Of a stretch of DNA of 64,000 bases, positions 1 to 31,557 are shown piece after piece. The first letter of the stretch is position 1. The number at the start of each line of letters is the position of its first letter. Source of the stretch: Psammoneis japonica (Eukaryota); contig QPGO01000194.1 of the NCBI GenBank assembly GCA_008632985.1, positions 1 to 64,000 on the forward strand. The letters run 5' to 3'. Under the pieces are notes generated by a model that did no database searches, had not been told where the DNA came from, and worked only from the letters and a program-made list of their open reading frames with translations. A program made the translations under genes and the position numbers.

Positions 1-1550
1 GTGGAAAGAGTTGTCCAGAGTTTGTTTGAATGCTCCATTCTGCATTGTGCGATCCATCGCGCAATGACAACTCCAACAGCTCGGCCACCCACATGAGATC
101 CCTGATTTGGCCTGTTGATGCATGTGTTCAGTGTTGATGGTTGATGTGTCCAATGACAGAGATGTGGTCCAGGAACTGCAAATGGATCATCAAGCAAGGG
201 ACAATCAGGTGTTTCTGTGGATTTGTAAAAATGAGTTGACATTGTGGAAGTCGTTGCGGAATCCACAACAAAGTGCAACATTTAGGAAACCTTTTCCTGG
301 AAGGAAGGGTTGAAATGTTTCGGACAATTGCACGACAACCCTTGCTGCTTGTGTGACTCAGATCTCCTGATGTTGCCACAACACACCATCAATTGCTGCA
401 AGGTTGTCACACAGACTTTCAACAATGACAATGGCCAAGAGTGGTGCCCAGCAACAGGCGGCTTTCAGAGCCCGCAAAATTGAGGAATTGGGGAAGGAAG
501 AATGGAACAGGTGTGATGCAGCGCGAAAGAGAAAGAGCATCAAGAGAAGGAACCGAGATGCTAAAGTGCTTGAGGAGAGAGTCAAGGCGACAGCCATGTT
601 GCCCCAGAGCAGGTTCCGTCTGACTCCGATCTGCACCCCTGCACCAGCAACATTTCAAAGCCCACAGCCAACAAGAACCACAGAAGAGGCAATGAGGACG
701 AGTCGGAGGATGGCAAAATTTGTGAGTGTGAGCCCTCAAGACTCCCCATCAAGGCAAACAACGGATGCGACTGTGATGATGAGTTGTCGGAGGCCAAGGT
801 TTGTGTTTGTGAGTCCTTGGGCAGAGAGGGACACACGGACAGTGAGGGTGCCAGTGTTGGAGAGCTTGGCAGTCGCAACCATGGCTGGAAAAGGGGCAGT
901 TCCATTCGTTTGCCATTGACAGAGGAATTCCAGATGATCCGTCTTGATTTCCATGATGAAGCTGAACTGTGTGCAGTTGGTGCGAAGATTGTCCAAGAGG
1001 CATTTGAAACCCAAGGCAGGCCTTGGCAATGTTCTTGGTCAAGTTGCTGGTGGCTTGACTGACAAAGTTCGCTGGGACCTCCAGTGCATCCTTGATGGTC
1101 ACAACAATTTTGTGCACAACAAGTGGGTGCACCGTTTGGACAACCCACGTGTGCACAAGGAGGTGTTGGATCGTGTCATCCCAAACTGGGAATTTCATGA
1201 CTGCAATTGCCGTTCACCGCCTGAAACAACTGCTTGATGAGAGTCACATGGAGAATGCAATTCTCAAGTGAAAGCTCAGTCTTTGCCAACTTGATGGCAA
1301 AAATGGCCAACCGGGAAAGCGCCGCCACTGGGGATCCCACTGAATTCTCCAGAAAACTCACAACTCGTAACCAAAATTGCACTGAATTTGCGGAATCCTC
1401 TTGCAATTAACAACGTGTGACCAACTTCTTTGTGACCATTTGTTCATTCCATTGAACTTCTCAATTGTGCTCTCTGCTCACTCCTTTTACGTCAAACTGT
1501 CACCAGTGCCTTGTTGCCCCCACCACAACCCACTTTGCTGCACTTTTGGA
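1..1550. repeat. Dispersed repeat family A, copy 1 (empty-site copy, truncated by window start), with decayed + strand ORF remnants
   Basis: Position 1 aligns to 10725. 1-603 matches 10725-11330 and ~607-1550 matches 18173-19146. Differences are dominated by TG/CA/CG swaps. Confidence 0.9.
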
Positions 1551-3697
1551 ACACAAGAGACCACACAGCAAGAAAAAGAGAGAGAGTGGAGCAAGAGGTG
1601 ACAGAGGGCACAGGTGAAGATCAAGCTGACGGGGAGCCATGCAGCAGCTCTCAGTGGCTGCAAGCAAGGCCCACAGAGGTGGAGCTGGACCAAGGAGAGA
1701 AGATGGAAGAAGGGCTCTTTGACAGGTTAAGAGTTCCAAAAGACAGCCCTGCATGTCAGGCAACAAGCTCCATCAAACAATGGAGCTGCAAATGTCAAAT
1801 GAAAAGAGGGCCAAACAGCAGACTGGTCTGCAAGAAAGTCACAGAGACAGAACTTAACTGTGTCAGATTTCCAATGCAGGTGGTGTGTGTTGCATCCTCC
1901 CAATTGTTGCTCCTTCCTGAGGAGATGCTCCCAAAAGCTTTGCTGCAGGGTTCCTTGCAGGGGCGCTCCATTGGCAACAGCACAACACAAGCTGACCAAG
2001 CACATGGCACTGGGACAGACTGGGAACTTGACAACATGCTTGCCCTTGATGCCCCAACAAACAAGCCATGGGGGTGGGCTGCACTCCCAATTGCTCCTTC
2101 CTGAGAAGATGCTCCCAGATGCCAGATGCAATGCATGACAGTTTGGGTGGCCTGCACAGGGCACAAGAAACTGGCTTGTTGGAAGCACCAGCAGCAGATC
2201 ACCAAGCTTTGCTGCAGGGTTCCTTGCAGGGGTGCTCCATTGGCAACAGCACAACACAAGCTGACCAAGCACATGGCGCTGGAACAGACTGTGAATGGCA
2301 AATGGAAAAGCACCTTTAGATGGCAGCCAGAGCAGATCTCCATCCAAGATCTGCCTCTTTCAGCTCTTTCTCACACCAGCACTCATGTCATCACAGTTGT
2401 CAGCACAACTTCTTTTGGCCTTTCCATCATGTTTCTTTGGTTTCATGTTCATTGTGTCACTTTTTTGCATTGCCTGGATGTGGTTTGCAAAATGAAAAAG
2501 CAGAAGACCATGAGCATGTGCTTTGTGCATGGTTGTGCTGGCACCAGCTCATGCACACAGACTGATCTCAAAATTGCAGTCTTTTGCATCACTCTGAAGT
2601 GAGCATGATGGCAGCAACCCTCCCATGCACTCACCTCTGTCATCTGAAGTTGCCACAGTTGTTGCATCACAAGTGCAGCAAATTTGTTTTTCAGCAGAAA
2701 ATCACAAGCCATTTTGGCCAAATTTGAAGACAAAGAGTGGCAGCCAGCCACCCTTAAAAGGAGCTTTCTGAGCTTTTAAAAAACCTCAATGATGCCACAA
2801 AGTCACCACTTGTGTTGACAAATGAACACAACAAACCAAATTGTTCACTTTCCTTGTTCAATTCTGCCTTCTTTTGTTTCAAAGTTCTGCTGTTTTGTGA
2901 GTCATGACCATCTCTGGCAACTGCACCAAAGTGCACAGCTTGACCCAAGAGAGACAAACCATGCTTCTTGATCCAAAAAAAGACAACCCATCAACTGTGC
3001 ACTCTTGGCTGCAATGCCAACCAGCACAATGGTTTGCTGCTTGCACAGCATTTTGCACTTGTGCACAAATTTGGGTCAGTCATGTTGATCTGCCAAAATG
3101 ATGTTTCACTCAATTGCAGCTTTCAATCCACTTTTAAATGCCACACAATGAGCCTCATTGTTGCAATGAGCACCTTGGCTTGAATTTGTCCTTGCACAAC
3201 TCAGGCCATTGTGGGTTTGTCTTTTGCATTGCCTGCCTCTTTGGAACAAGCATGTGAGCCCTTGGTGGCTTGGTCAAATGCTTGTTCATTGGTTTTGGCA
3301 CTCCACTTCTCTTGTCCAATTTTTTCATGTGGAAGCTCCTTGTCACCTTCAGGAACTGTGTGCACCCCCTTCTTCATCAGAAGCTAAAGACTTCTAAACA
3401 GCATCATTTTTCAGCTCATCCTTCAATGCAGAACAGACTGTTTGCACCCAGCATTTTTGCTGCAACTCTTGGGCTCAAAGTTGTCAAAATGAACAGCCAA
3501 ATGAGAGAACATTTTTAAAACCAACCAACATCCATGCCATGGTGGTCATCTTTGGCAAGTTTTTGCATGGGTGAGGGCACTCTGTTGTTCTTTGTGCACT
3601 TTGATGGTGCTGTTCTGACATCATTCAGGATGGGACAGAGCAAGCTTGGGACCACTTGCACCATCAATTGCTCTCCAGTTTCCAGTTTTGTCACACC
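1550..3697. repeat. Dispersed repeat family B, copy 1
   Basis: Colinear with 19801-22267. This copy lacks ~21170-21481 and has an internal duplication ~1935-2010/2204-2290. Confidence 0.85.
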
Positions 3698-4674
3698 TGG
3701 GTTGGTTCTCATTTTCAAGGTGGAGCTGTGAAGATCCACTGTTGCACAGGCTCATTTCAAGTGCTTGTCCCATGCCTTCAGTTGCTCTAGAAGCCAGCCA
3801 CCAGCAGCGATGCTGTCATCCAAGATTTCTCCATGTCCAAGAGTGCAAAGGCATCCCAGTGAGAAAGATTCTTGCCCAATCACTTTAACAAGCATGTTGG
3901 CAGAACAGCCAAGACAGCAGACAAGTCTTTGTCATCTTTGCATTCAGCAAACGTCAACTGGGTGCAATCTTGCATGTTCTGTGGATGTGTTCTGAGCTCT
4001 CCTTGTTCTGCACAAAATGACACACCGCACCCATCTGACTGTCCAGAGCAGTGATCATTTGTTCGTTGGACCATTTGACAGGCTCAATGGCACTGTTCCA
4101 TCAGTGCTGTGGCAAGATGCACTGTGGTTGCAGCAAAATTGACAGCAGTGTGCCAGCACACAGCATGGTTTCTTTTTGGTGCATCTGGTTGGCTGCATCA
4201 TGAAGGTGCAACGTCATGCAGTTGTGTTGATCCAGTCCTTGGCTGACCACTCACTGTCAGAAGATTGAAAAACAAAGCTGAAAAAGAAATCAAAATGTGT
4301 TGATGGACAATGCCAGAGCCATCCGTCACCAGGGGTGACCCAGAGTTGGAGCTCTGGTCATGTGCGGAGAGCCACAAAGGGTGCAAGGCATGGGCTGTGA
4401 GCAAAAACTCTGTGAACTCATGAACACTGCAAAACAACATTGACAAAACAAAGGATCAAGCTTGCTGCAATGTGGCTTGTGTGGTGCTTGTTGTGGGCTT
4501 GTGCACAGCTTCTGCATTGGCCCTCTGATGCAAAAGCAGATTGCAGAAGACAGCCCCTGTTTGTGCATGGGCAGGCACAGACCACTGTCTCTCATTGGTT
4601 CCCAGTGTGTGCCAAACAATCAATGGGTTGATTGCTCATCTCTTTCTGGGCTCTTTGACTGGTTGGTTGTTCTG

Positions 4675-5130
4675 AAAGACAGCACTGCATGTCAGGCAAT
4701 GAGAGTTCCATCAACCAATGGAGCTGCAAACATCAAATGAAAGGAGCGCCAAACAGCAGCCTGGCCTGCAAGACAGTCATCATGCAGACAGAACTTGATG
4801 GTGTCAGATTTCCAATGCAGGTGTGTGACATAAAAAGCACTGCCATGGCTGTCACTCTCTTTGAGTGCAACACCCAACATTTGATGTGCCATTGCAAGTG
4901 GCAGAAAGGGGGGGCAGGGTGCACTGCTTCACCACACAAGTGTCTTGGAGGAACTTGATGACACACTTGCCCTCAAGGCCAGCACCAAACAAGCCAGAGC
5001 AGGGTTGTTTTTGCACTCTTGATGGCTCCTGAGGAGATGCTCTCAAATGCCAGGCAGCATGAGCAGTGGATCACAAAGCATTGCTGCAGGGTTCCTTGCA
5101 GGGGCACTCTGTTGGCAATGGCACAACAAG
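4675..5130. repeat. Partial, more diverged third copy of family B
   Basis: Matches ~20000-20500 (gcatgtcaggcaa...gtgtcagatttccaatgcaggt...gctgcagggttccttgcagggg). Confidence 0.75.
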
Positions 5131-5451
5131 CATGATCAACATCCATGGATGGAAAACCAGGGCACAGGAGCATGGTGAACTTGCTCCATTTTGTTAAAGC
5201 ACATGGAGTGGTTGCAACAAGCATGAGTGCACTTGCTGTCCCACCACTTGAGAAGATTGCTGCAAATCCTGCTTGTTTTGTTGTGAGCCACCTGCAGACA
5301 ATTGGTGATTGCTGCACTGGGGGATGTTTTCAGCTGGCAGCTGTCTGGAAAATCTGTTGCAAAATTTGTGCCAAAAGAGTCTAATGATCAGTGCAACTGG
5401 TGGTTTTGTCCAGTTTTGGTGAACACTGGACAAACTGGATGTCTTTTTTTG

Positions 5452-5960
5452 CACATGCTGCCACCCTGAAGTGAGACAAGAGACCACACAGCAAGGAAAA
5501 AGAGAGTGAGCGGAGCAAGAGGTGACGGAGGGCACAGGTGAAAATGAAACTCATGGGGAGCCATGCAGCAGGTCTCAGTGGCTGCAAGCAAGGCGCACAG
5601 AGGTGAAACTGGACCAAGGAGAGAACATCCATGATGTTCAGCCCTCCCCATTAAAATGTCTTTTAAACCCAGCCCCTGTTGTGGACCCTGAAACACCCAA
5701 AGTGTCATGGTCTGCAATGTTCTTGTGGATGTCCATGACATCCGTGACAGTGACTTTGGGAACTCCATGACATCTGTGACATCACAAACTCAGTGTCAAA
5801 TTAGCTGAGACACCTTTTTTGTTGTGGACTCAAGTTTTTGTGGATTCTGTGACATCCATGATGAAATGGAGTCAGCGACATTGACTGTGTTCAGCACAGC
5901 CCATTGAAATGTCTTGGAAACTCAGCAACTGTTGTGGACTTTGCAACACCCAAACTGTCA
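5452..5960. repeat. ~500-bp module duplicated at ~7897-8422; its first ~150 bp also occur at ~1553 and ~19780
   Basis: acatgctgccaccctgaagtgagacaagagaccacacagcaaggaaaaagagag is shared at 5452 and ~7900, with colinear downstream sequence. Confidence 0.85.
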
Positions 5961-6089
5961 TGGTGTGCCAATGTCCAGCACTCCCCATTAAAATGTCTTG
6001 GAAACCCAGCCACTTTGTGGACTTTGCATCACCCAAACTGTCAAGGCCTCCATGACATTGGTTGTGTCATGGACTCTGTGACATCCGCC

Positions 6090-9000
6090 AGCACTCCAAA
6101 ATGAAACAGCTGAGAAACCTTGCCCTTGTTCCAGACTCTGCAACATCCACAGTGTTGCGGACTCTGTGACATCTGCCCTCACTGCAAAATGAAACAGTTG
6201 AGAAACCTTGTCCTTGTTGCAGACTCTGCAACATCCACAGTGTCATGGAATCCATGACATCCGTGACATCTGGACTCTGCGACATCCGCCCGCAGTCCAA
6301 AATGAAACAGTTGAGAAACCCTGTCCTTGTTGCAGACTCTGCAACATCCACAGTGTCACGGATTCCATGACATCCGTGACGTCTGGACTCTGTGAGATCT
6401 GCCTGCAGTCCAAAATGAAACAGCTGAGAAACCTTGTTCTTGTTGCAGACTCTGCAATGCCCACAGTGTCATGGACTCCATGACATCCACAATGTCATGG
6501 CCTCCATGACATCCACCACACTCCAAAATGAAACAGTTGAGAAACCTTGTCCTTGATGCAGACTCACAGTGTCACAGACTCCATGGCATCTGCCACATCA
6601 TGGCCTCCTTGACATCCACCAAACTCCAAAATGAAACAGTTGAGAAACCTTGTCCTTGTTGCACACTCTGCAACATCCACAGTGAGGAAGACTCCATGAC
6701 ATCCGTGATGTCATGGACTCCACAACATCCACCCATGCTCCAAAATGAAACAGTTGAGAAATCTTGTCTTTGTTGCAGACTCTGCAACATCCACAGTGTC
6801 ACAGAATCTGTGGCATCCATGAGGACATGGACTCCGTGACATCCGCCCGCACTCCAAAATGAAACAGTTGAGAAACCTTTTCCTTGTTGCAGACTCTGTG
6901 ACACCCACAGTGCAATGGAATCCATGATGTCCGTGATGTCATGGACTCCATGACATCTGCCCACACTCCAAAATGAAACAGCTGAGAAACCTTGTCCTTG
7001 TTGCAGACTCTGCAACATCCACAGTGTGGCAGACTCTGTGACATCCGTGACATCATGGACTCTGTGACATCTGCCTGTTCTCCAAAATGAAACAGTTGAG
7101 AAACCTTGTCCTTGTTGCAGACTCTGCAACATCCACAGTGTCATGGAATCCATGACATCCGTGATGACATGGACTCCGTGACATCCGCCCTCACTCTAAA
7201 ATGAATCAGTTGAGAAACCTTGTCCTTGTTGCAGACTCTGCAACACCCACAGTGTCACAGAATCTATGACATCCATGATGTCATGGACTCTGTGACATCC
7301 ATGACTTCATGCACTCCACAACAAAAAAAGTGGAGTCCTTGTTGTGGACTGAGAAACCTTTTCCTTGTTGCAGACTCTGTGACATCCACAGTGCAATGGA
7401 ATCCATGACGTCTGTGATGTCACAGACTCCGTGACATCTGCCCACACTCCAAAATGAAACAGTTGAGAAACCTTGTCCTTGTTGCAGACTCTGCAACATC
7501 CACAGTGAGGTGGGCTCCATGACATCCATGACATCATGGACTCCGCAACATCCACCAATGCTCCAAAATGAAATGGTTGAGAAACCTTGTCCTTGTTGCA
7601 GACTCTGCAACATCCACAGTGCGGCAGACTCTGTGATTTCCGTGACATCATGGATTCTGTGACATCCGCCGGTTCTCCAAAGTGAAATGGCTGAGAAACC
7701 TTTTCCTTGTTGCAGACTCTGCAACATTCACAGTGTCACGGAATCCATGACATCCATGATGTCATGGACTCAATGACATCCACAATGTCATGCACTCCAC
7801 AACAAAACAGTGGAGCCCTTGTTGTGGACTCTGCAACACCAAAAGTGTTGTCTGTTCCATGACATCTGTGATGTCATGGACTCTGTGACATCTGTCCACA
7901 CATGCTGCCACCCTGAAGTGAGACAAGAGACCACACAGCAAGGAAAAAGAGAGAGAGCAGAGCAAGAAGCAACAGAGGGCACAGGTGAAGATGAAGCTCA
8001 CAAGGAGCCATGCAGCAGCTCAAGCAAGGCCCACAGAGGTGGAGCTGGACCAAGGAGAGAACATCCATGATGTTCAGCCCTCCCCATTAAAATGTCTTGG
8101 AAACCCAGCCCCTGTTGTGGACCTTGCAACACCCAAAGTGTCATGGTCTGCAATGTCATGGATTCTGTGAGATCAATGATTTCATGGACTCTGTGACATC
8201 CATGACAGTGACTTCAGGAACTCCATGACATCCGCGACATCACAAACTGAACATCAGATCAGCTGAGACACCTTTTTTGTTCTGGACTCAAGTTTTTGTG
8301 GATTCTGTGACATCCATGATGAAATGGAATCAGCAACATTGATGATGTTCAGCACGGCCCATTAAAATGTCTTGGAAACCCAGCCACTGTTGTGGACTTT
8401 GCAACACCCAAACTGTCTTGGTGCCCCCACTCCAAAATGAAGCAGCTCAGAAACCTTGCCTGTGTTCCAGACTCTGCAACATCCACAGTGTCACAGACTC
8501 TGTGACATCCATGACATCATGGACTCCATGACATCCGCCCTCATTCTCTATGATGAAACAGCTGAGAAACCTTGTCCTTGTTGCAGACTCTGCAACATCC
8601 AGAGTGTCACGGAATCCATGACATCCATGACATCTGGACTCCGTGACATCCGCCCGCAGTCCAAAATGAAACAGTTGAGAGACCTTGTCCTTGTTGCAGA
8701 CTCTGCAACACCCACAGTGTCACAGACTCAGTGACATCTGTGACATCATGGACTTTGTGACATTGGCCCTGGCTCTAAAACGAAACAGCTGAGAAACCTT
8801 GCAGACTCTGCAACATCCACAGTGTCACGGAATCCATGACATCTGTGATGTCTGGACTCTGTGACATCCGCCCACAGTCCAAAAAGAAACAGTTGAGAAA
8901 CCTTGTCCTTGTTGCAAACTCTGCAACACCCACAGTGTCACAGAATCCATGACATCCATGATGTCATGGACTCCGTGACATCCATGACTTCATGCACTCC

Positions 9001-10570
9001 ACAACAAAAAAGTGGAGTCCTTGTTGTGGACTCTGCAACACCCAAAGTGTTGTGGATTCCATGACATCCATGATTTTTTGGACTCTGCGACATCCACCTG
9101 CACTCCAAAATGAAACAGTTGAGAAACCATGTCCTTGTTGCAGACTCTGTAACATCCAAGTTGTTGTGGAGCCTGTGACATCCATGACATCATGGACTCC
9201 ATGACATCCATGATGTTCAGCGCTCCCCATTAAAATGTCTTTGAAACCCAGCCCCTGTTGTTGACTCTGCAACACCCAAACTGTCACAGACTCCATGACA
9301 TCCATGGCATCATGGACTCTGTGACATCCACCTGCACTCCAGAACAAAATGGCTGAGAAAGAACCTTGTCCAACTTTCTGAAACACCTTTTTTGTTGTGG
9401 ACTCAAGTTGTTGTGGATTCTGTGACATCCATGATGTCAATCCATGACACTCATGATGTTCAGCACTCCCCATTGAAATGTCTTGGAATCCCAGCCCCTG
9501 TTGTGGACTCTACAGTGCCCAAACTGTTGTGGACCCCATGACATCTGTGACATCATGGACTCCATGACATCCACCTGCACTCCAAAATAAAATGGCTGAG
9601 AAACCTTGTCCTTGTTGCAGACTCTGCAACATTTGCAGTGTTGCAGACTCTGTGACATCTGCCCTCACTCCAAAATGAAACATCCACAATGTCACGCACT
9701 CCACAACAAAACAGTGGAGCCCTTGTTGTGGACTCTGCAACACCAAAAGTGTTGTCTGTTCCATGACATCTGTGATGTCATGGACTCTGTGACATCCGTC
9801 TGCACTTCACAATGAAACATCTGAGAAACCTTGTCCTTTTTGCAGACTCTGCAACATCCACATTTTGTTCTGGAATCTGTGACATCCATGATGTCACGGA
9901 TCCTGTGACATCAGTGACACCATGGACTTGGTGACATTTGTGACATCACAAACTCCACAAAGAAACAGTTGAAGATTCCATGAAGCACAGTGTCGCGGAT
10001 TCCCTGACATCTGCAATGTCATGGACTCCATGACATCTGGGACATCACACACTCAACAACAAAACAGTTGAGAAACTTTGTTTTGTTGTGGACTCTGCAA
10101 CATCAAAATTTGTTGTGGATTCTGTGACATCCATGATGTGTCATGGTTTCCATGACATCCATGATGTTCAGCGCCCCCATTGAAATGTCTTGGAAACCCA
10201 GCCCCTGTTTTGGACTCTGCAGCCCCCAAAGTGTCATGGATTCCATGACACCCATGATTTCATGGACTCTGCAACATCTGTCCTTGCTTCACAATGAAGC
10301 AGTTGAGAAACCTTGTCCTTGTTGCAGAAAAGTTTGAGAAACCCAGCCCTTGTTGTGGGCTGCCCAACATCTGCAATGTCACAGATGCTGTGACATGATC
10401 TGCAATGTTGTGCAACAAAAGAGCTTGGAAACCTTTTCCTTGTTGCAGATTCTTCATCATCCACATTGTCACAGATTCCATGCCATCCATGATGTCATGG
10501 ACTCCATGACATCCATGACATCACACACTCCACAACCAAGCAGTTGAGAAACCTTGTCCTTGTTGCGGGC
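6090..10570. repeat. Degenerate tandem array, ~114-bp unit built from 9-bp subrepeats and GANTC-centred palindromes
   Basis: ctccaaaatg-type unit starts at 6738, 6852, 6966, 7080, 7194 (period 114). Recurrent tgttgcaga-c-tctgcaaca and tgtcatgga-N-tccatgaca. Confidence 0.92.
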
Positions 10571-10724
10571 TCTGCACTGTTTCTCAATCACACCAACACT
10601 GTGTTTCAATTGTCAGTCAATGTGGTGTTGGGAGACTCATGTGTGCAGCTGTTGGCAGTGTGGCAGAATGGACTCTCTGCTGGCGGCAGCCAGGAACAGA
10701 AAAGGTGCTCTCTGCTGCGGCAGA

Positions 10725-11330
10725 GCAGAAAGAGTTGTCCAGAGTTTGTTTGAATGCACCATTCTGCATCACGCGATCCATCGTGCAATGACAATTCCAA
10801 CAGCTTGGCTGCCCACATGAGATCCCTGATGTGGCCTGTTGATGCATGTGTTCAGTGTTGATGGTTGATGTCTCTAATGACAGAGATGCAGTCCAGGAAC
10901 TGCAAATGGATCATCAAGCAAGGGACAATCAGGTGTTTCTGTGGATTTGTAAAAATGGGCTTGTGTTGCGGAAGTCATTACGGAATCTGCAAAGAGGTGC
11001 AATGTTTGGGGAACCTTTTCCTCGAAGAAAGGGTTGAAATGTTTTGGATGCCCACATGACAACGCTTGCCACTTGTGTGACTCAGATCTCCTGACATTGC
11101 CACAACACACCATCAATTGCTGCAAGGTTTTCACACAGACTTTCAGCAATGACAATGGCCAAGAGCGGTGCCCAGCAACACAGGCAGATTTCAGAGCCCG
11201 CAAAATTGAGGAATTGGGGAAGGAAGAATGGAGCAGGCATGAAGCAGTGCAAAAGAGAGAGAGTGTCGAGAGAAGGAACAGAGATGCCAAGGCACTTGAG
11301 GAGAGAGTCAAGGTGATGGCTGCGTTGCTG
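10725..11330. repeat. Family A copy 2, left part (interrupted by the copia insertion)
   Basis: Aligns with 1-603 and stops at the LTR edge. Confidence 0.9.
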
Positions 11331-11512
11331 CAAACAAATCTCGATGCAACGAAAGAACAAGCACGATGCCTTAAGTCTAAATGGGAAGTGGCAACACTGT
11401 CAATGCAAACCTAAACCTGATTAGATTGTGAGCGTGTCACTGCAGCACCACTCGATCCACACATCTTAACCAACCACCAATTGTGACATGGCCCTCCATC
11501 CAGATTTACTTG
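11331..11512 (-). repeat. 3' LTR (182 bp)
   Basis: Ungapped match to 17987-18168 with 15 differences by hand alignment, all transitions. Confidence 0.92.
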
Positions 11513-11676
11513 GTCCCCGTGAAACGGCAATGACAATGCCGATTCGTCTGAACATGTAACATCCTCTCACAGAGAGGCAAACCACAAGAACCCAAATTAA
11601 ACCACCAGACATGCTGGCTTGGGAGGCCACGATACGTGGACGCGAGCCACAGGTGCCTGGCCTTGGTGTCGGGACA

Positions 11677-14600
11677 TCACCAAAAAATGCGCGAGCAAAG
11701 CTTCCATCGCCGCTCTCCTGCAACCACCTTCGCAAGTAGATCGGCCAAGTTTGTTTCCGTGTCCTCCTTGCCAACACGAATAATTCCCGCTGCGACCGCT
11801 TCTCGTGCAACATGGTAGTTGATGGCATCATGCTTCTTGTGCAAAACCGACTCGGGTGCACTTACATTCTTTGCAACACCGCGATTGTCACAAAAGACAC
11901 TTGCCGGTCCTTCAAGGGGAACCCCAAACATACGAAGCTTGTAACGCAAAGCAACAACCAATTCTTTACAAATCCGCATCGCAACCAATTCACTCCCGAA
12001 CGTTGCCGATTCCACCGTGTTCTGCCGCTTGCTGAACCATGCCACTGGCGCGTCATTGACGAATGTCAGAATCCCGCTGTGCAACCTGCGAGTGACAACA
12101 TTCCCTGCATGGTCAGCATCAACAAATGCACAGATGTTTGCCGGATCACCACGAGGCTTCGGTGCCCGTGGCGGCAGTTCCTCCTCGACGTCCCCATAAA
12201 ACTCGGTCCAGTCTGCGTTCGAATTGAAAATAGATTCATCAATCACCGGTTCCTTTGGATCAAATCCGATGCATCCGACGTTCTGGTGTTTCTTCATGTG
12301 CGCAAATGCATGGTGCAATGCCTCAAGATGTCCTTTCCTTGGATTAGCTTGACATTGAGATAGGATTGAAACCTCATGCAAGATGTCGACACGACCCAAC
12401 TCGATCGCATGACGACAAATCCCTGTCAGCTGTAAACACCTGTCCACCAAGTCGGGGCCCAACTCGTCCGTCATGTCCAGTTCCGGTTTGCACTTTGGGG
12501 GCAGTGGATCCTTTGCACTGTTCTTCAGAACCTCTCCATTGCCGTCTTCATCCAATGGGCCTTCCACAGTCTTAATCGCCGATTCAACATATGACCTCGG
12601 GGAACTCGCCCAGATTGTGCGCCCATCCTGAGTCTGAACCTTCTCAACGTTAGCTCCAAGACAAACTTCTGGTTCTCCTTCGCTGCCGGGCTTCACGGCA
12701 CAGTGTTCACCCATTGCAGTGACAACAGACTTCCCTTGATGGGAAATGATTGGCATGTCATCGACATGAACCAAAAGCATTTCATGATGCTCATGCCCAT
12801 CCTCACGAGTCGCCGCACGCAAGCAGACATCTGGGTCCACTCTCGTCGATTCGAAGCCTGAGTCATGTAAGACCGATGACAGTGCAGACCTCCAAGAGTG
12901 TCCCGAGCTCTTTAAGCCACATGACACCCGAGTGACAACAAGTGCCTTTCCTTCGTACTCGCCGCATTCCTTTCCACCTTCAAACCACATCTTTTCTGCG
13001 CACGGTGCATTGAGACAAGCATTCTCCAGATCAATCGTCGCAATGTTGATGCCATTCAAGGCTGCTGACAAGAATCCAAGTCGCACACTGTCTCTGGAAA
13101 CCACGCCAGAGCAAGTGATCGATGCCAGGGCCTCTGTCATGTGTCCGCCAGCTGCAAACCTTGCCTTTCTGGTGAAATCCATTTCAATGTCGAATGCCAT
13201 GTGGCACCTGATCTCCTGATGACCACGCAAAGTTGTGCTCTTGCCTTCCTGGACGACTTGAGGGGTTTCAGCTTCGTGCTCGCGCTATGCCACCTTTGCC
13301 TTTGCCATCTCCTTGTTGATTGCACGAGCCCAACAATCTGTCCCTGTTTCCTGATCAATCCGCAAAGCGTCCTCCGTGGACTTGGGCAATCGGGTCCCAA
13401 ACTTGTGAGTCGTGCGCCAGCACTTCTTCTTGACCTTGGACACAATGCGGTTCCGTTTGTGCAGGACATGTGTGACCCACCAAGCAAAAGCAGGTTCTTC
13501 CGTCAACCTGTTCGCAACAGCATGCTCAGCAACTTCAATGGGGTTAGAGTCCTTTGGATCTTTGAGTTTGACCCAAGATGAGCTGCCATCCTTCCATCCA
13601 ACCAGTGGCTTCCATCCTTTTGTTGTGATCTTCTTCTTCTCCTTCCCGTCAGCAGTTCGTACGGTGCCATCAGCAATCGACACCGCATCGTCACTCCTCT
13701 CGTGGTCCTGCATCTCGTGCAAGATAGAACACTGGTTGCCCTCACTGTCAACCTGAGCAAACATGTTCTCGGCAATCACATTGGCTGCGTGCTTGTCTGT
13801 GGTTCTGTCGGTGTGTTCCACTTCGCACTCGCGAGTGTCAAACAATGGGTTTTGATGCCGAGTCCCAATTGGACGCCCATCCTGTCCTCTTGCACGTTTC
13901 GTCACAACACCACGTCGCTCGCCGTCGGTTCCGATGTCAAACACAAGTTCCATTCCCAGGTGTTGATCGATTGCCTGCTCGTTGTCGTCGTCTGGTCACT
14001 CGTCGGGCAATGGCATGTTGCCACATTCCTCGTCCTCTGGCGTGATGCCGCCCTCATGTTCCACACCGAGGTTGCCGTCAATTGCAAGATCGTCCAACAC
14101 ATTGACAAAGTCAGTGTCGTCCAATCGCTTCTCCAGCTGCTCATTAAAGTTGTCGACCTTGACGCGAATGTCCGGTTGTGCCACATCAGCCTGTGTCACA
14201 TGCTCGACCGATGTTTTGGAGACAATCTTCCCATTTTCCGCAATGATCCAACAGCACACATCCGAGCCAACTTTGTGTGAGACACCAAGCCACCGTCCAA
14301 GCCTTCGAGGATCGTCAGTTGCACTCGGCTTGTTGGGCCTGTCCCACCACCATGCCATGTCGTAGAAACCAAAATCTAAATGCTCGCCTGTCTCTGGTGT
14401 CTGCCCAGTGACCTCTTCATGTCCAGTCCTCTCATCCCTGCCTCTTGCCATGCGCGACACTAATTCCGACTCGCAAACAAGACCAAAATCCCACAATCGC
14501 TTTGGCACCTTCTTCTTCGTCATCCGCAGCCGCCAACGTTTGGCTAAGAAACCAATTTCGCGCTCCGCTGCCTGGTTCTGGTTCTTCCGACCCTGCTCTG

Positions 14601-15981
14601 ATGTTCTTAATTGTGTTCTCACACGTCGTGCGTGTCTCACAAATTTGGTGCTCCTTCCTGTGAACTCTCCTGCCCCGTCCGACATAAGATGTTCTGGTGC
14701 ACCCACGTCGTCTGTGAATTCAACAAGAGACAAACCTGCCTCCGACCTGGTGGTCATCGGCACAACCTTCACGAATTTGCCCTGAGTGCAAACATTGGCA
14801 CACGTGTTGCCGAGCAAAGACTTCACCTTGGATGTCAAAGTGTCCACAAACCATGTTCCTTTCAGACGCTTCCGATGCAAGTCAAGATGATCCACCCTCA
14901 CTCTTCGTGACATCGGCTGGGTCGCCGTTCGCACACCGCGCTGAGTTGTTACATTGAGAGCATCTTTTGCCGTTTCTAAACCGACACTCCATTTTCGGGC
15001 CAGCTCTTCAGCGTCAACCTTCGAGTGCCGATCCTTGCTGTGTAAATCTTTGACTGCCCTCTGCCTCTTGTCCACATCGTTGTGACATGTGCAAGCCATG
15101 TTCACTGAGCTGACAAGCCTGTCGCAAAACGATTGAAGTTGATGGATGGGAGACACAGACGATGGTTGCATTTCGACCTCGCCCCAGCATGCTGCTTGGG
15201 ACTTTGCCTTCTCGCTCCTTAATTCCAAGACCTGTTCTTGTCGCATGCCAGAGGTTGATGATCGAATGGCACGCATCTCCGCCTGCTCTCTAGTGCGCTC
15301 TGGCAAGCCCATGTCTGTCTGTGCTGGATCCCATGCATCACCTGTCAACAGCACAACCGGTGAGTTCTGTACTTCCCAATCCGTCGGAACACGAGACTTG
15401 AAAGACACAATTGTCCCCGTGGTGTTGAAAGGGATGAAAGCTTCGTCAGCTTCAATGCCAAATCCGTTTCGGGTGTCGCAAGGGTTGTCGTGTGCGGGTG
15501 TGTTGCACGCACGGAGTTGGTTGGGATTCAAAAGTGAGTGTTCCATGTCAGTCCCAAACCAGAGCATTTGATCACCAACCAGCAAACACTCACGAGTCGT
15601 TTCCGGATCTGTCCATGCGGTGCAACAACGTGCCACAGGAATCTGTTTGATCGGCTCATGAGAGTCCAGAAATGGATGCACCTTGCACACTTCATTTGTC
15701 ATCTCCATGAGCTTCCAGTTTGCCCCAGCGCAACAAGTGTCCGCATGAGCATCACATTCATTTCGAGCGACAAACCCAGGTGTCGTCAAATTTGTCATCT
15801 GTGCAGAACTCGTCGATCGGATCACACGTTTTGATGTCACGGCAATGTGCCTCTTTGTCGCCTTTCCTTTGAAACGAGACATTGGGTGGGGTTTGGTCAA
15901 CAGCAAGAAGAGCAACACAAGCAAAAACGACAAGTGCACCAAATGCGCCAACACTCCAGCAGCTGTTGCCACCCCAAGGAG
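11677..15981 (-). pseudogene. pol: pol (protease, integrase, chromodomain-like segment, reverse transcriptase, RNase H) with two in-frame stops
   Basis: PR CDAHADTCCAG; IN FVDT...MSDGAGE...AAEREIG; RT RKARFAAGGH, CGLKSSG, LVHVDD; RNase H FVDADHAG, ESATFGSE, FCDN, NLADLLAK. ORFs 13996-15972, 13285-13953 and 11677-13230 share one frame, with stops at 13996-13998 (TGA) and 13285-13287 (TAG). Confidence 0.93.
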
Positions 15982-17526
15982 TCAGGTGGAACCATTGCAG
16001 GCTCCCCGACCGAAGGCACGTCCATTGCATCCACCGCGATCCCGGTCAGCGCCGCAACCACGCCCGCTGCTCCTTTGCTCCTGATCCTGTTGTTGGGTTT
16101 GGCCTTGGCCATCTTGATGGACTTGGGCTTCAGCTGCATGCCCACCGCCCCCATCGCGTCCTTGTCGACCTGCGGGAGACCCACAGCCACCACCGCGTCC
16201 ATGACCCATTCGTTCGCGAGCTTGGAACACGCAGCTCATGCCCCCATCACACTGTAACTTTTCCCATTCTTGAGCGCTAAAGCTCCTTGTAGGGTCGGAT
16301 GCATCGACTCCATTGATCATCGTAGTGTGGTCGCCACCTCTGCCTTGACAGCCGCCACCACATCCGTGTCCACCCCCACGTCCAAATCTTCCTCCGCGAC
16401 CGCGACCTCGACAAAAACCGCGGCCACCGCCGCCACCACGGCTCATTTCAGAAATCTTGCGCTTTGAGCAACGCCGGGCTTCCAACTGAGTGCCTGCATG
16501 CAAACGAGAGACTTCGGATGAGAAATGAGCACATGCCCCCGCGAAGTCACGAGGGTGCTGACTGCCAATGACAGCCGTTGCTGCAATGAGACGAGTGTCA
16601 TCCGTTCGGATCCCTTTTAGAAGAATGTCAACTTTCTGTCGTTCAGATTTGCGGTCGTCCGGTGATTTGTTCAAAGCAGCGAAAGCACTGGCGAGTTTCT
16701 CATTGAACTTTTCAAACGGGAGCGATCCTTCCTTTTCACAAAACAAGGTTTCAACAGTTGCCACAGCCAGATGGATGCACTTGCTCAACTCGCCCTGTCC
16801 ATTGCAATGGTCAACCCATGCTTTGAATGCTCCACGTCCGTCTTCTGTTGCGCCAAACGGTTCGATCCATGCCCATCCTGCCGTGTCGACCAAGTGTTCC
16901 TTCAACATGCGGCAAACGCTGTGGTTGTCCTCGTCACATGCGGCGCCATTCAATGGCATCTGGCACATGCGCTGTTGTTGAGCATCCGTGAATGCAGCCG
17001 GAGCTGGCATTGTCCTTATGACATGGCAAAGGGGTTCTTTCAACACGCCAAATTTCTGTGCCAAGAGATTCAGGAAAGCATCTTCGCACACATCGAAGTC
17101 ATCGGGCTTGAACTTTACGAGACCGCTTGCCGACGCGTCTGAATCCATGCGCTCCTTTTCGATGCACCTGCCATTCCGGGCTGCAGCCACAGCTGCCACA
17201 TTAAAGTCTGCCGCAACCAATGGCTGATTCCGTTTGAGCAAATCCTGGCACCACCATGCCAGCGCCTGCAAGTTCTTGATCTGAGTGGTCCCAAGAGTCA
17301 CACGTCCGTCGGCCACCGTGCAACGAGACGCCCTCTGCACCATGTCTTCCACATCGTGATCACTCTCCATCACTGCGATGCTTTCCAAAGTCGTGAACCC
17401 TTCATAGAAGACCAACCTCGCCCTTGCGTTCTGGTCAGCAACACCACAAACTTGCAAAACTGCGTCAACGTCAGCTGCCGCGGCTGACGCTGCAAGTGCT
17501 GCTGCTGGTGCTGCCGCTGCTGCCAT
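15982..17526 (-). pseudogene. gag: gag-like ORF with RGG-rich C-terminal region
   Basis: Long ORF between the 5' LTR and pol, in frame with pol. Contains EDGRGAFKAW...GQGE and KVDILLKGI segments and a GRGRGGRFGRGG tract. Confidence 0.8.
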
Positions 17527-17970
17527 CCTGTGATAGAGAAAGGGCACAAAGGTCCCGCACCGGGAACATGTGGCTGTCAGTCTGCATGGTCATGATGACT
17601 GCACTTTCTCTGTGTTGTGACAACGGGTTCACACAGCCACCCGACGTCAGGGTGATCAGTCCTGTGTCGTTCATGTCAACCGACATTGTTGAGCACACGC
17701 TCGGGCACATTGCCCAATGCCGCAGTCCCTTCACACCCGTCACACATGTGAGGATAGTGACTGTCTTTGCGAGCATCACCATTGCAAGCTGTTTTTGTGG
17801 ATGTTGTGACAAGTGACATGAGACACATCATCGTGCGCATCAATCCGAATTCTGATGCATCGCGCACAGCTCAGCACCGTTTCTACAGCTGCACGTTCCA
17901 TGCAAACAACACAACAAACAATCGTCCATGACGAATTGCACTCGAAACCATTTCGCTCTGTCTTTTTCGT

Positions 17971-17983
17971 CTTGGCTCTGATG
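17971..17983 (-). other. Putative primer-binding site (initiator tRNA-Met-like)
   Basis: Minus strand reads catcagagccaag 3 nt inside the 5' LTR, resembling the copia tRNA-iMet PBS (TGG)TATCAGAGCC with TA->CA. The TGG is absent. Confidence 0.5.
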
Positions 17984-17986
17984 GAG

Positions 17987-18168
17987 CGAATAAATCTCGA
18001 TGCAACGAAAGAACAAGCACGACACCTTGGGTCTAAATGGGAAGCAGCAACACTGTCAATGCGAACCTAAACCTGATTAGATTGTGAGCGTGTCGCTGCA
18101 GCACCACTCGATCCACATGTCTCAACCAATCACCAATTGTGACATGGCCCTCCATCCAGATTTACTCG
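17987..18168 (-). repeat. 5' LTR (182 bp) with 10-bp terminal inverted repeat
   Basis: Top-strand ends cgaataaatc ... gatttactcg (9/10 inverted match). Confidence 0.92.
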
Positions 18169-18172
18169 GCTG

Positions 18173-19146
18173 GAGCAGGTTCCGTTCGATTCCGATCCGC
18201 ACCCCTGCACCAGCAACATTTCAAAGCCCACAGCCAACAAGAACCACAGAAGAGGCAATGAGGACGAGTTGGAGGATGGCAAAATTTGCAAGTGTGAGCC
18301 CTCAAGACTCACCGCCAAGGTGAACAACGGATGAGACTATGATGGCAAGTTGTCAGAGGCCAAGGTTTGTGTTTGTGAGTCATTGGATGGAAAGGGATGC
18401 ATGGATGGTGAGGATGCGGTGTTGAAGAGCTTGGCAGTTGCAACCATGGCTGGAAATGGGGCAACTCCATTCGTTTGCCATTGACAGAGGAATTCCGGAT
18501 GATCCGTCTTGATTTCCATGATGAAGCTGAGCTGTGTGCAGTTGGTGCAAAGATTGCCCAAGAGGCATTTGAAACCCACCTGCCAAATTTAAAACTGGAG
18601 GCAGGCCTTGGCAATGTTTTGGTCAAGTTGCTGGTGGCTTGACTGACAAAGTTCGCTGGGACTGTCAGCACATCCTTGACGGTTGCAACAATTTTGTGCA
18701 CAACAAGTGGATGCACGGTTTGGACAACCTGTGTGAGTGCAAGGAGGTGTTGGATCAGGTCATTCACGAACTGTGCCAAAGTGAGAATTTTGTGACTGCA
18801 ATCGCGGCGTTCACCACCTGAAACAACTGCTTGATGAGAGTTGCATGGAGAATGCGATGCTCAAGCAAAAGCTCAGCCGTTGCCAACTTGATGGCAAAAA
18901 CAGCCGACCGGGAAAGCGCGCCACAGAAGATCCCATTGAATTCTCTAGAAGACTCGTGGCTCGTAACCAAATTGCGTTGCCTTTGCAGAATCCTCTTGCA
19001 ATTAACAAATGTGACCAACTTCTTTGTGACCATTGGTTCATTCCATTGAACTTCTCAATTGTGCTCTCTGCTCACTCCTTTTAGGTCAAACTGTTGCCAG
19101 TGCCTTGTTGCCCCCACTGCAACCCACTTTGCCGCACTTCTTGGAA
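18173..19146. repeat. Family A copy 2, right part
   Basis: Resumes alignment with ~607-1550 right after the LTR (gagcaggttccgt). Confidence 0.9.
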
Positions 19147-19800
19147 TGAACGGTGCCTTTGGTGGCGCCTCTTTGCCATTTTCTGCGCATCACTGCTCCT
19201 GATGTCACCAAAAATCTAACATCCAACCACATGTTGTTGTGGCACTTTGAAACTTTCAACAATGGCATCTTGATCTCTCCGACCTTTGGTTTGTCTGTTT
19301 TTACCAGAGAGAAAAAGACATGCGTCTCATGAGAATGTGGCAAACACCAGGCTGCATGTGCAATGGAGTGATGCAGACGATCAAACAACTTTTGATCTGG
19401 AAGCAGGAACAGCAACTTGTGAAAAGGAGGCTCCCAAGCAAGTGCACGTGCTGATGCAGGCATCATTGTCCCACTGCAAGATGCAATTCCAAGGTCACGG
19501 CAAGCATGCAAAATCTAAAGCCAATTCCACCTCATGCACTGTGCACAAGTCATGCAAAAACAACTTCATCATCTCGGAGACCTGTTTGTCCTGCTCTCAT
19601 GACTCTTGTTTTCTCATCCAAACACGTTGTTCTCCAGATTGGTTGGAAATTGACAAACTTTTGGGTGACAATTGGAAACCAAGCAAAACAACACTCATGC
19701 ATTCAAAAGTCACTTTCCAGTGGGTAGAGCCAAAGAGCTGACCAATGCCAGGCAACCCACAGCTGGAGCTCCAGCCAGAATGCTGCCACCCCAAAGGGAG

Positions 19801-22267
19801 CCAAGAGACCACACAGCAAGGAAAAAGAGAGAGAGTGGAGCAAGAGGTGACAGAGGGCACAGGTGAAGATCAAGCTGATGGGGAGCCATGCAGCGGCTCT
19901 CAGTGGCTGCAAGCAAGGCCCACAGAGGTGGAGCTGGACCAAGGAGAGAAGATGGACCCAGTCTGGAAGGGCTCTTTGACAGGTTGAGAGTTCCAAGAGA
20001 CAGCCCTGCATGTCAGGCAACAAGCTCCATCAAACAATGGAGCTGCAAATGTCAAATGAAAAGAGATCCAAACAGCGGACTGGCCTGCAAGAAAGTCATG
20101 GAGACAGAACTTGACTGTGTCAGATTTCCAATGCAGGTGGTGTGTGTTGCATCCTCAATGAGCACTCCTGCTTTCAAAAGCTCTGCCATGGCTGTCACTC
20201 TGTTTGAGTGCAGCATCAGACATTTGATGTGCCGCTGCAAGTGGCGGCAAAGGTCAGGGTGCACTGCTTCACACAGGTGTCTTGGGGAACTTGACAACAT
20301 GCTTGCTCCAGAGGCCCCAACAAACAAGCCAGGGGATGTTGCTCCTTCCTGAGGAGATGCTCCTAGATGCCAGATGCAATGCATGACTGTTTGGGTGGCC
20401 TGCAGAGGGCACAAGAAACTAGCTTGTTGGCAGCACCAGCAGCAGATCACCAAGCTTTGCTGCAGGGTTCCTTGCAGGGGCGCTGCACTGGCAACAGCAC
20501 AACACAAGTTGACCAAGCACATGGTGCTGGGACAGACTGTGAATGGCAAATGGAAAAGCACCTTTAGATGGCAGCCTGAGCAGATCTCCATCCAAGATCT
20601 GCCTCTTTCAGCTCTTTTTTGCCAGCACTCATGTCATCACAGTTGTCAGCACAACTCCGCTTGGCCTTTTCATCCTGTGTCTTTGGTTTTGTGTTCACTG
20701 TGTCACTTTTTTGCATTGCCTGGATGTAGTTTGCAAAATGAAAAAGCAGAAGACCGTGAGCATGTGCTTTGTGCATGGTTGTGTTGGCACTGGCTCATGC
20801 ACACAGACTGATCTCAAAATTGCAGTCTTTTGCATTGCTCTGAAGTGAGCATGATGGCAGCAACCCTCCTTTGCACTCACCTCTGTCATCTGAAGTTGTC
20901 ACAGTTGTTGTGTCACAAATGCAGCAAATTTGTTTTTCAGCAGAAAATCACAAGCCATTTTGGCCAAATTTGAACACAAAAAGTGGCAGCCAGCCACCCT
21001 TAAAAGGAGCTTTCTGAGCTTTTAAAAAACCTCAATTTGCCTCAATGATGCCACAAAGTCACCACTTGTGTTAACAAATGAATCTGACAAACCAAGTTGT
21101 TCACTTTCCTTGTTCAATTCTGCCTTCTTTTGTTTCAAGGTTCTGCTGTTTTGTGAGTCATGACCGTCTCCCTCCAGAAAGCTTTGCATTTGAGCACAAC
21201 TTCATCTTGAAACTGGGGTGCCACCACAGGCCAGTCCTGTCTGGCCTTTGTGCAGGACCTTTAAAACCACTTGTGCAAAGCACAACAAAAATTGCACACC
21301 ATGATGAGCACTGCCACCAATGCATTGTCTTGCAGCACTGCACCCATTGCAATGCTGACTGCCAAACTGCACCAACATGCTCTTGACACCTCCAAGCATG
21401 TGGCGAACTTTTCATTTTGTTCAAAGATGAGTGCATCTTTGAGTGTGCTGACACAGTTAAATGGCAGCACTCACAGAACATTTCTGGCAACTGCACCAAA
21501 GTGGACAGCTTGACCCAAGAGAGACAAACCGTGCTTCTTGATCCCAAAAAGACTGCCCATCAACTGTGCACTCTTGGCTGCAATGCCAACCAGCACAATG
21601 GTTTGCTGCTTGCACAGCATTTTGCACTTGTGCATGAATTTGGTCAGTCATGTTGATCTGCCAAAATGATGTCTCACTCAATTGCAGCTTTCAATCCACT
21701 TTTAAATGCTGCACAATGAGCCTCATTGTTGCAATGAGCACCTTGGCTTGAATTTGTCCTTGCACAACTCAGGCCATTGTGAGTTTGTTTTTTGCATTGC
21801 CTGCCTCTTGGAACAAGCATGTGAGCCCTTGGTGGCTAGGCAAATGCTTGTTCAATGGTTTTGGCACTCCACTTCTCTTGTCCAATTTTTTCATGTGGAA
21901 GCTCCTTGTCACCTTCAGGAATTGTGTGCCTCCCCTTCTTCAATGGAAGCTAAAAGACTTCTGAACAGCATTGTTTTTCAGCTCATCCTTCAATGCAGAA
22001 CAGACTGTTTGCACCCAGCATTTTTGCCACAGCTCTTGGGCTCAAAGTTGTCAAAATGAACAGCCAAATGAGAGAACATTTTTAAAACCAACCAACATCC
22101 ATGCCATGGTCATCTTTGGCAAGTTTTTGCATGGGTGAGGGCACTCTGTTGTTGTTCTTTGTGCACTTTGATGGTGCTGTTCTGACATCATTCAGGATGG
22201 GGAAGAGCAAGCTTGGGACCACTTGCACCATCAACTGCTCTCCATTTTTACCAGTTTTGTCACACCT
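19801..22267. repeat. Dispersed repeat family B, copy 2
   Basis: Colinear with 1550-3697. Confidence 0.85.
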
Positions 22268-25265: not shown

Positions 25266-25293
25266 TCTTTCTTTCTTTCTTTCTTTCTTTCTT
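25266..25293 (+). repeat. (TTTC)n microsatellite
   Basis: tctttctttctttctttctttctttctt. Confidence 0.85.
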
Positions 25294-28200: not shown

Positions 28201-28650
28201 TTTCAAGGGAGCTCTATGATTTTGAAAATCCAGACCCAAGGCACAGAAATGGCTGTTTCAACACAATCACTTAGAAACACCACAGCCATGGGAGAAGACA
28301 GAGTGGCATGAAGGCACCGGCATTACATCATGTACAAGTACCCAAGGCCCATGGCGACTGAAGATGGTGGAGGGCACGGGGCCAGCTGCGAGGTCCTCTC
28401 CTTGCTGGCTTACAGTCTTGGCTACAAGGACCACAGAGTGTCAATGACACATGTGATTGTTTTCGACCGCCGAGCTCCAACCTTGTTATCAGAAACTCAA
28501 TTCTCAGAAGAAATTCGAATAAGTCTTAGGTTCGAGTCGGCAGTACAAAAGCAGAAATCACTTTGTAAACGGCTCAGCTATAATACATTTTAAACATTAT
28601 GGAGCTACGTCTTTCTCGATTAATTGAGCAATCCATCATCTTGCGCATTT

Positions 28651-31511: not shown

Positions 31512-31557
31512 CTGGAGACACAGAAAAACAGTTCTACTCATAACGTCTTAGTCAAAG

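Follow-up and report, generated by a model that had tools for sequence, protein, structure and literature searches.

Region-bound loss of TpA to TpG and CpA with graded neighbor dependence in repeats of the diatom Psammoneis japonica

What removes nearly every TpA dinucleotide from blocks of repeats in a diatom genome, and why do the few that persist stand mostly after a T or before an A? The question is raised by a 64,000-nucleotide (nt) stretch of Psammoneis japonica DNA, hereafter the window (GenBank assembly GCA_008632985.1, contig QPGO01000194.1, positions 1 to 64,000 of the forward strand). Its first part, 1..1500, lies inside an old repeat copy (copy A, 4-3699) and contains six TAs, compared with ~60 expected from the density in the window's gene region (Poisson P = 4e-19). 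These are tgTAaa at 226, ttTAgg at 283, gcTAaa at 562, cgTAac at 1368, atTAac at 1408, and ttTAcg at 1488, and a sequence-only reading of this DNA had listed them correctly with their flanks. All six are in TTA/TAA context (P = 0.0034 given a gene-region share of 0.387). That reading proposed that TpA is attacked by an enzyme with the self-complementary target [ACG]TA[CGT] (VTAB), outside which TTA and TAA survive. The results presented here indicate that the TTA/TAA bias is probably the footprint of a region-targeted, DNA-level hypermutation of TpA to TpG and CpA, in which the neighbors act in a graded rather than a binary manner.

TpA is scarce from position 1 to ~28.2 kb and from ~61.5 kb to the end of the window, where it occurs 0 to 11 times per 500 nt with observed-to-expected (O/E) ratios mostly of 0.00-0.2, and TpG and CpA are roughly doubled in the same DNA (O/E 1.5-2.6 per 500 nt). 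The affected DNA includes a TA-poor and CG-poor repeat block at 1..11316 (TA O/E 0.00-0.16, CG O/E 0.00-0.49, and TG/CA O/E 1.5-2.6 per 500 nt) and, on the minus strand at 11317..18172, a Copia-type long terminal repeat (LTR) retrotransposon recognized by an RVT_2 match. It continues at 18173..28200 with a further TA-poor and CG-poor repeat block, and a second separate TA-poor and CG-poor repeat block occupies 61500..64000, with a sharp left edge at ~61.5 kb. Copy A recurs with 86-94% identity as copy B (10728-11316 plus 18173-22268), which is interrupted by the Copia insertion and followed by other repeats, and a ~114-bp satellite fills ~5888-10620 as a tandem array. The boundaries with the gene region (28500..61400; TA O/E 0.59, CG O/E 1.04), which carries ordinary host genes, lie at ~28.1-28.3 kb and ~61.5 kb, and each transition takes place within ~100-200 nt. 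Overall, the TA O/E falls to 0.05 in the old blocks and to 0.16 in the Copia element, the TG/CA O/E being 1.5-1.9, and the satellite is as strongly affected as the retrotransposon. CpG is also lost in most of the TA-poor DNA (O/E 0.15), with the exception of the Copia element (0.85). All other dinucleotides, among them AT, AA, and TT, occur at gene-region levels; the ApT O/E is 0.86 in the old blocks and 0.98 in the Copia element, compared with 0.94 in genes.

The context bias seen in 1..1500 extends across the repeat blocks, as had been claimed by eye. In total, 111 of the 148 TAs in the TA-poor blocks (30.7 kb) are in TTA/TAA context, whereas the gene region has 498 of 1288 (odds ratio 4.8, Fisher p = 2.8e-17), and the 5' and 3' flank distributions depart from the block base composition (chi-square p = 4e-10 and 2e-17, respectively). 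Some cTAt, cTAc, and gTAg sites do remain, as was also stated (CTAT 5, CTAC 4, and GTAG 9).

The direction of the change was read from the Copia element, whose LTRs lie at ~11333-11513 and ~17989-18169 and whose polyprotein frame (11677-17589) has three internal stops. The polyprotein has 1561 relatives at E ≤ 1e-10, two of which, among the 120 listed, are named from the diatom Fragilaria crotonensis, and it was aligned with the best 60 of these 120. At the 24 columns in which at least 70% of the homologs have Tyr, the element has 11 Cys, 8 His, and 5 Tyr, and the codons of all replaced residues (19/19) are TGY (Cys) or CAY (His), which indicates that, on the coding strand, TA gave way to TG as well as to CA. 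Other conserved residues were retained at 74-100%, except for Ile (44%) and Asn (66%), and most of the Ile replacements (Val, Thr, and Met) and Asn replacements (Asp) are those that TA→CA/TG changes would produce inside a codon or at a codon boundary. Tyr accounts for 0.4% of the element's residues versus 3.3% in its homologs, with His at 3.6% versus 2.6% and Cys at 3.4% versus 1.1%. The reverse transcriptase motif YVDD has become HVDD through a codon pair that now reads GTT CAT, and two conserved Leu columns now hold Ser, in agreement with the earlier remark that protection is not absolute. The TA O/E is 0.61-0.89 in 56/56 related Copia loci from metagenomes (all with ≤68% amino acid identity), which served as an unmutated baseline; the loss of TA is not a trait of this Copia family. 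A side observation concerns one relative of the reverse transcriptase frame (P0040), which has the lowest Tyr content among the 120 listed proteins (1.7% versus a median of 3.5%) and raised His (3.9%) and Cys (2.2%). Judged from its composition, it may carry a partial TA→CA/TG change in another organism.

Comparison of the repeat copies shows where and when the changes arose. Where copies A and B differ in an aligned dinucleotide, the pair seen most often is CA/TG (44 sites), and 145 of their 226 transitions fall in aligned TA/TG/CA/CG dinucleotides. The two LTRs differ by three TG/CA doubles in ~180 nt. Double differences of this kind would arise solely from independent mutation of an ancestral TA or CG on the two strands, and since LTRs are identical at insertion, those between the LTRs indicate that the changes arose in place. 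The doubles in the copies and the LTRs, the unchanged ApT, and the affected satellite argue against RNA editing before reverse transcription, a general drift from AT to GC such as biased gene conversion, and a process acting on ApT. The process in the repeats is therefore a change of A:T to G:C at the DNA level that is specific for TpA and bound to certain regions, affects both strands after insertion, and depends in a graded manner on the neighbors.

To express this dependence, survival was defined as the counts of strand-symmetric NTAN classes relative to the gene region, taken as the unmutated control, with length normalization. TTAA survives best (0.74), followed by CTAA/TTAG (0.34), GTAA/TTAC (0.15), CTAG (0.14), ATAG/CTAT (0.08), CTAC/GTAG (0.07), ATAA/TTAT (0.05), GTAC (0.03), ATAC/GTAT (0.01), and ATAT (0.01). 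The ranking is unchanged under an internal normalization, TA/(TA+TG+CA+CG) with the same flanks. Uniform depletion across the classes, which the sequence-only reading had named as its own refutation, was rejected (deviance 159 on 9 degrees of freedom [df], p = 1e-29). The counts are described by a model with four parameters, one factor per neighbor, in which the two sides multiply (deviance 6.1 on 6 df, p = 0.41), the neighbor of a half-site being the base 5' of T or, mirrored, the base 3' of A. The fitted half-site survival is 0.82 for T, 0.43 for C, 0.17 for G, and 0.10 for A, and the half-site decay rates are 2.35 for A, 1.75 for G, 0.86 for C, and 0.18 for T. Merging of neighbors was rejected for C = T (p = 3e-5), G = C (p = 7e-6), A = G (p = 0.02), and A = G = C (likelihood ratio 45.3, p = 1e-10).

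The order T>C>G>A was found in all four separate blocks (4/4) with two baselines, i.e., the gene region and the 56 Copia relatives. For A, G, C, and T, respectively, half-site survival is.05,.09,.27, and.88 in 1-11 kb;.03,.09,.45, and.80 in the block 18173..28200; and.05,.18,.59, and.77 in 61500..64000. It is.04,.10-.12,.39-.45, and.67-.82 in the old blocks and.19-.22,.34-.38,.54-.61, and.74-.90 in the younger Copia element, where the milder factors are as expected from one process running for different times. The influence reaches beyond the immediate neighbor. T stands at position -2 in 49% of the survivors versus 27% in genes (p = 2e-7), an excess that persists with -1 fixed as T or C, and a weaker enrichment is found at -3 (35% versus 26%). 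The effect at -2 indicates that the best-kept TAs lie at junctions of T-tracts and A-tracts.

The explanation that we favor is a hypermutation of repeats by A:T→G:C transitions at TpA on either strand, in which neighboring A, G, C, and T set the speed of loss in proportions of ~2.35 : 1.75 : 0.86 : 0.18. Survival is the product of the effects of the two sides, and a T at -2 (or an A at +2) gives additional protection, with TTAA hardly lost (0.74) and ATAT, GTAC, and ATAC/GTAT almost erased (0.01-0.03). An enzyme directed to silenced or repeat chromatin would be responsible. A candidate agent is an adenine deaminase acting on DNA, which would convert A to inosine, read as G, as hypothesized in a preprint on the alga Bigelowiella natans that is discussed below. 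The neighbor rule would then be either the sequence preference of the enzyme or the result of poor access to TA steps in T-tract/A-tract DNA.

Several points weigh against this account. The mechanism of TpA loss is deduced from sequence, the neighbor rule is carried by 148 surviving TAs, and the survival baseline is either the neighboring gene region or distant Copia relatives instead of true ancestors. The sole public run that contains this DNA may be the source sample, so the base calls lack independent confirmation. Two further points concern how the sides of a site combine. Additive half-site rates fit the survival counts (deviance 6.5 on 6 df) and a multiplicative site rate with simple decay does not (deviance 21.0, p = 0.002), and yet a whole-site multiplicative rate agrees acceptably with them once back-mutation is included (deviance 10.4, p = 0.11). 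In the simplest half-site model, where the hit on each strand is set by its outward neighbor only, ~9% His is predicted at Tyr codons in TTAY context, whereas 4 His and 4 Cys were found (p = 0.003, n = 8; the product ratio is 4 to 3 or 4 to 4 in two tallies).

Other product choices at sites with one protective flank can be set beside these. In the copy pairs, with TA assumed to be ancestral, five hits fell away from the protective flank and two beside it. The tetramer gains are larger for ACAA, CCAA, and GCAA than for ATGA, CTGA, and GTGA, i.e., the hits again tend to fall away from the protective flank, and some product classes lie below their baseline, which indicates a baseline mismatch. 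The 26 satellite monomers that were aligned were left out of this tally because the dinucleotide that persists in their mixed TG/CA columns is mostly CG rather than TA, and because the copies are nonindependent. A two-sided reader, or a property of the whole site such as DNA mechanics, fits the few polarized events better than a rule with one neighbor.

DNA mechanics is the alternative that survives best. TA steps within TT/AA stacks would open or flip less readily, and any agent acting on TpA would reach them less. A-tracts are linked to DNA rigidity, and the ranking of the classes tracks the flanking step, with ApT the most vulnerable and TT/AA the most protective. The protection extends in a tract-like manner to T at -2 and weakly to -3, and the near-even choice of products at TTAY fits a site-level property. 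However, a multiplicative site rate with simple decay, which would be natural for an opening energy, is the very model that fits the counts badly. We regard it as possible but rather unlikely.

The palindrome-reading enzyme with a binary VTAB substrate is improbable. What stands of that proposal is that T on the 5' side and A on the 3' side protect, since three-quarters of the survivors (the 111 of 148 given above) have one or the other, and that the pattern is strand-symmetric. The near-even TTAY products look as if the whole site set the rate, and the whole-site rate with back-mutation is compatible with the counts. The binary rule itself did not hold. VTAB is both too coarse and too narrow: it leaves a deviance of 86.9 on 8 df (p = 2e-15), and even a count of T half-sites (0, 1, or 2) leaves 50.9 on 7 df (p = 1e-8). 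Sites with V and B flanks are lost unequally, the neighbors C, G, and A differing among themselves, and a 5' T or a 3' A does not always protect; ATAA/TTAT, with one supposedly protective flank, is kept at 0.05, no better than VTAB sites. Position -2 matters as well. The self-complementary motif, which had been taken as typical of an enzyme, is uninformative in this respect because TA is itself self-complementary, so a single-strand neighbor preference acting on both strands forces a palindromic pattern on the survivors. The palindromic pattern is no evidence for a palindrome-reading enzyme.

It is very unlikely that the present TTA and TAA sites are newborn, i.e., made by C-to-T changes in TC context (TCA→TTA and, on the other strand, TGA→TAA) after the old TAs had gone. 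A C-to-T process that prefers TC does exist in these blocks, and TG/CA is ~20 times commoner than TA there. In the old blocks (1-11000, 19000-28200, and 61500-64000), no TCGA is left, compared with 173 in the gene region; CpG survival is 0.07-0.13 in the TCG-containing classes and highest in CCGC/GCGG (0.34) and ACGG/CCGT (0.33). CpG loss being strongest at TCG, TTA could in principle be created from TCA. However, all TAs common to both members of copy pairs, LTRs included, are TTA/TAA (13/13, p = 4e-6), and because they are shared they predate the copying; the alignments thus indicate that the present sites were inherited rather than newly made. In addition, the Copia element, which retains its CpG (O/E 0.85), shows the same order T>C>G>A, and additive rates give a poorer fit in an equilibrium model (deviance 14.0, p = 0.03).

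The decay of CpG is a separate, slower process with the opposite neighbor preference, TCG being the most lost and TTA the best kept. In the Copia element, about three-quarters of the TA is gone and little CG has been lost. The reverse was observed in two of the metagenomic Copia loci (L050 and L054), where the CG O/E is 0.14-0.18, the TG/CA O/E is 1.5-1.6, and TA is normal (0.68-0.70), which indicates that CpG decay of Copia elements occurs elsewhere without TA loss.

RNA-level editing of retrotransposon transcripts by an ADAR- or ADAT-like enzyme, fixed by reverse transcription, is hardly credible. Such enzymes typically edit an A that is preceded by a U, according to a recent preprint (bioRxiv 10.64898/2026.01.13.699255). 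However, the satellite and sequences without reverse transcriptase genes are equally affected, the LTRs differ by TG/CA doubles even though they are identical at insertion, the coding strand carries both TA→TG (11) and TA→CA (8), and the blocks have sharp genomic edges. Equally poor is the case for a sequencing artifact, in which a modified base at TpA in silenced DNA would be misread: the run may be the source sample and its library type is not on record, but paralogs and LTRs show TG in one copy and CA in the other at the same site and in the same local sequence, contigs of the run (X1) reproduce the TA-poor single-copy DNA with 9 other letters over 25303-26996 and 6 over 27822-30000, and, in the B. 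natans preprint, the same signature represents true de novo mutations in Illumina data. The contig covering 27822-30000 crosses the block edge. Among 40 of the 2194 variant places in the run contigs, those in single-copy DNA look like the window's own paralog aligned across it.

The closest known system is that of B. natans, as described in the preprint by Mettrop et al. (bioRxiv 10.64898/2026.01.13.699255). In a mutation accumulation experiment with this rhizarian alga, 230 of the 231 de novo mutations in two viral inserts were A>G/T>C, and the GC-biased mutations in the viral inserts were all on TpA; clusters poor in TpA and rich in CpA and TpG were enriched in transposon domains, and the authors proposed that DNA is the substrate of an ADAT2-like adenine deaminase. 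The main text of the preprint gives no flank rule, and the terms context, flank, trinucleotide, TTAA, and CpG are absent from it. Several traits of that system recur in P. japonica: TpA alone is affected, the products are TpG and CpA, and the changes are confined to sharply bounded repeat regions beside normal genes, as they are to foreign or repeat regions beside normal host DNA in B. natans. In both, the long-term outcome is low TpA and high CpA plus TpG, with reverse transcriptase and transposase sequences enriched there. The systems differ in the host, which is a rhizarian in the one case and a diatom (stramenopile) in the other, and in depth, with a TA O/E of 0.05-0.16 here versus a Rho of 0.45 for the nucleocytoplasmic large DNA virus (NCLDV) insert described there. 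They also differ in the targets, since an LTR retrotransposon is affected here together with a satellite and further repeats, and in the additional loss of CpG from the old blocks.

Fungal repeat-induced point mutation (RIP) offers a second comparison. RIP consists of C-to-T changes, mainly CpA→TpA, and thus makes TpA and removes CpA and TpG. It resembles the present case in that repeats are filled with transitions at one dinucleotide, with a neighbor preference, destroyed coding capacity, and sharp edges. The direction is reversed here, with TpA nearly absent and CpA/TpG doubled, and RIP was ruled out as a candidate on these grounds. Hyperediting of the ADAR type, fixed by retrotransposition, was rejected too: the changes are neither restricted to retro-copied sequences nor older than insertion.

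Among enzymes, the adenosine deaminases TadA, ADAT2-ADAT3, and fungal Tad2-Tad3-Ame1 convert A to I and require or prefer U/T at -1, as stated in PMC11156358 and PMC11087585. They share with the process proposed here, as does ADAR, the conversion of A to I (read as G) with U/T at -1; unlike it, they act on RNA, whereas here DNA is changed on both strands after insertion. The preferred 3' neighbor of the A is G for ADAR, and UAG and UAA are the favored sites in fungal editing. Here, in contrast, TAA is the least affected and TAT and TAC the most, if the 3' neighbor counts. The decay of CpG through 5-methylcytosine is similar in that a self-complementary pyrimidine-purine step gives way to TpG/CpA in silenced repeats, and it is also present in the old blocks (CG O/E 0.15); it differs in being slower here and in its opposite neighbor preference. 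The sequence-only reading had further drawn a parallel with the VATB motif of symmetric N6-methyladenine (6mA), which, as described there, shares a four-letter self-complementary form and a dinucleotide core of A and T. This parallel has no support here: the 6mA motif is centered on ApT and the present one on TpA, the neighbors act in a graded manner rather than as a V/B dichotomy, and ApT is not depleted (O/E 0.86-0.98 versus 0.94 in genes). A 6mA-linked process acting on ApT was rejected on the same values, the affected adenine not lying in ApT.

Tentatively, the agent may be a genome defense editor of the diatom with a footprint of at least 6 bp, i.e., an undescribed DNA adenine deaminase or a thymine-modifying enzyme that works on both strands of silenced repeats and is shared or convergent with the B. 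natans system, which would place such an editor in a second eukaryotic supergroup. As part of that reading, the footprint (A>G>C>>T at -1, with T protective at -2) possibly matches no ADAR, TadA/ADAT, or cytosine deaminase. No deaminase or TET/JBP-like gene was found among the 30 window frames that were scanned. Of the 58 open frames of at least 110 amino acids (aa) in the old blocks, 51 were scanned against Pfam, and none matched a family at the cut-off.

Within the gene region, a single 860-nt island (51309..52168) resembles the repeat blocks in its lack of TA. It has one TA, which reads cgTAaa (GTAA context), the favored kind, as had been reported; CG is normal and the TG/CA O/E is 1.35/1.27. 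Elsewhere in the gene region, the longest gap free of TA measures 202 nt. The island overlaps an open frame (51393-52106, plus strand) that encodes a basic, Lys/Arg/Ser-rich protein with no Pfam family, and it is possibly a short single-copy sequence on which the TpA process has acted.

The long uninterrupted frames of the gene region encode PH-START-EDR2_C, RING, GATase, and DDHD proteins, two glutathione S-transferases (GSTs), a short-chain dehydrogenase/reductase (SDR), a lactonase, and a solute transporter. The best match of the EDR2-like protein has 61% identity. The DDHD relatives that carry organism names are all from diatoms (Cylindrotheca, Nitzschia, Fistulifera, Seminavis, Mayamaea, Entomoneis, Epithemia, and a Bacillariaceae metagenome-assembled genome), with 38-52% identity over at least 59% of the query. 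The gene for the DDHD-domain protein is divided between two open frames that overlap on the minus strand (47157-47906 and 47833-50409), and its relatives are single proteins of ~1050-1300 aa, which implies a short intron or a frameshift. The two GST paralogs lie in opposite orientation at 52813-53769 (minus strand) and 60223-61203 (plus strand), with a 95-nt inverted repeat of 76% complementarity between them. Just past the PH-START-EDR2_C gene, two 249-nt stretches with 100% identity (57367-57615 and 57712-57960) stand on either side of a gap of 58 Ns (57654-57711), a pair that looks like an assembly gap artifact. In the sole public run with this DNA, the contig depth is ~2000 over the Copia element versus ~57 in single-copy DNA. 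It peaks at ~5900 over 27445-28088, just inside the edge of the TA-poor block, and many loose contig ends fall in 27586-27858; the peak marks a very high-copy short repeat at the block border.

The phenomenon itself is of an already described, very recent kind, the sole prior report of a TpA-specific AT-to-GC hypermutation being the 2026 preprint on one rhizarian alga, in which an enzyme is proposed rather than identified (bioRxiv 10.64898/2026.01.13.699255). The literature searched, which leaves out most subscription journals, contains no report of such a hypermutation in diatoms, no further system beyond B. natans, and no account in print of this depth of depletion, of satellite and LTR targets, of a CpG decay with opposite preference, or of a quantitative neighbor rule. 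For annotation, open frames in such genomes that are free of Tyr, rich in Cys and His, and poor in stops are dead transposons. The neighbor rule constrains the candidate enzyme, providing a quantitative specificity profile that a deaminase or base-modifying enzyme would have to reproduce in vitro, and, applied to the mutation tables of B. natans, it yields a prediction of the TAs that should be spared there. The occurrence of the same signature, much deeper, in the repeats of a diatom suggests that a mirror image of fungal RIP is widespread in marine algae or arose more than once.

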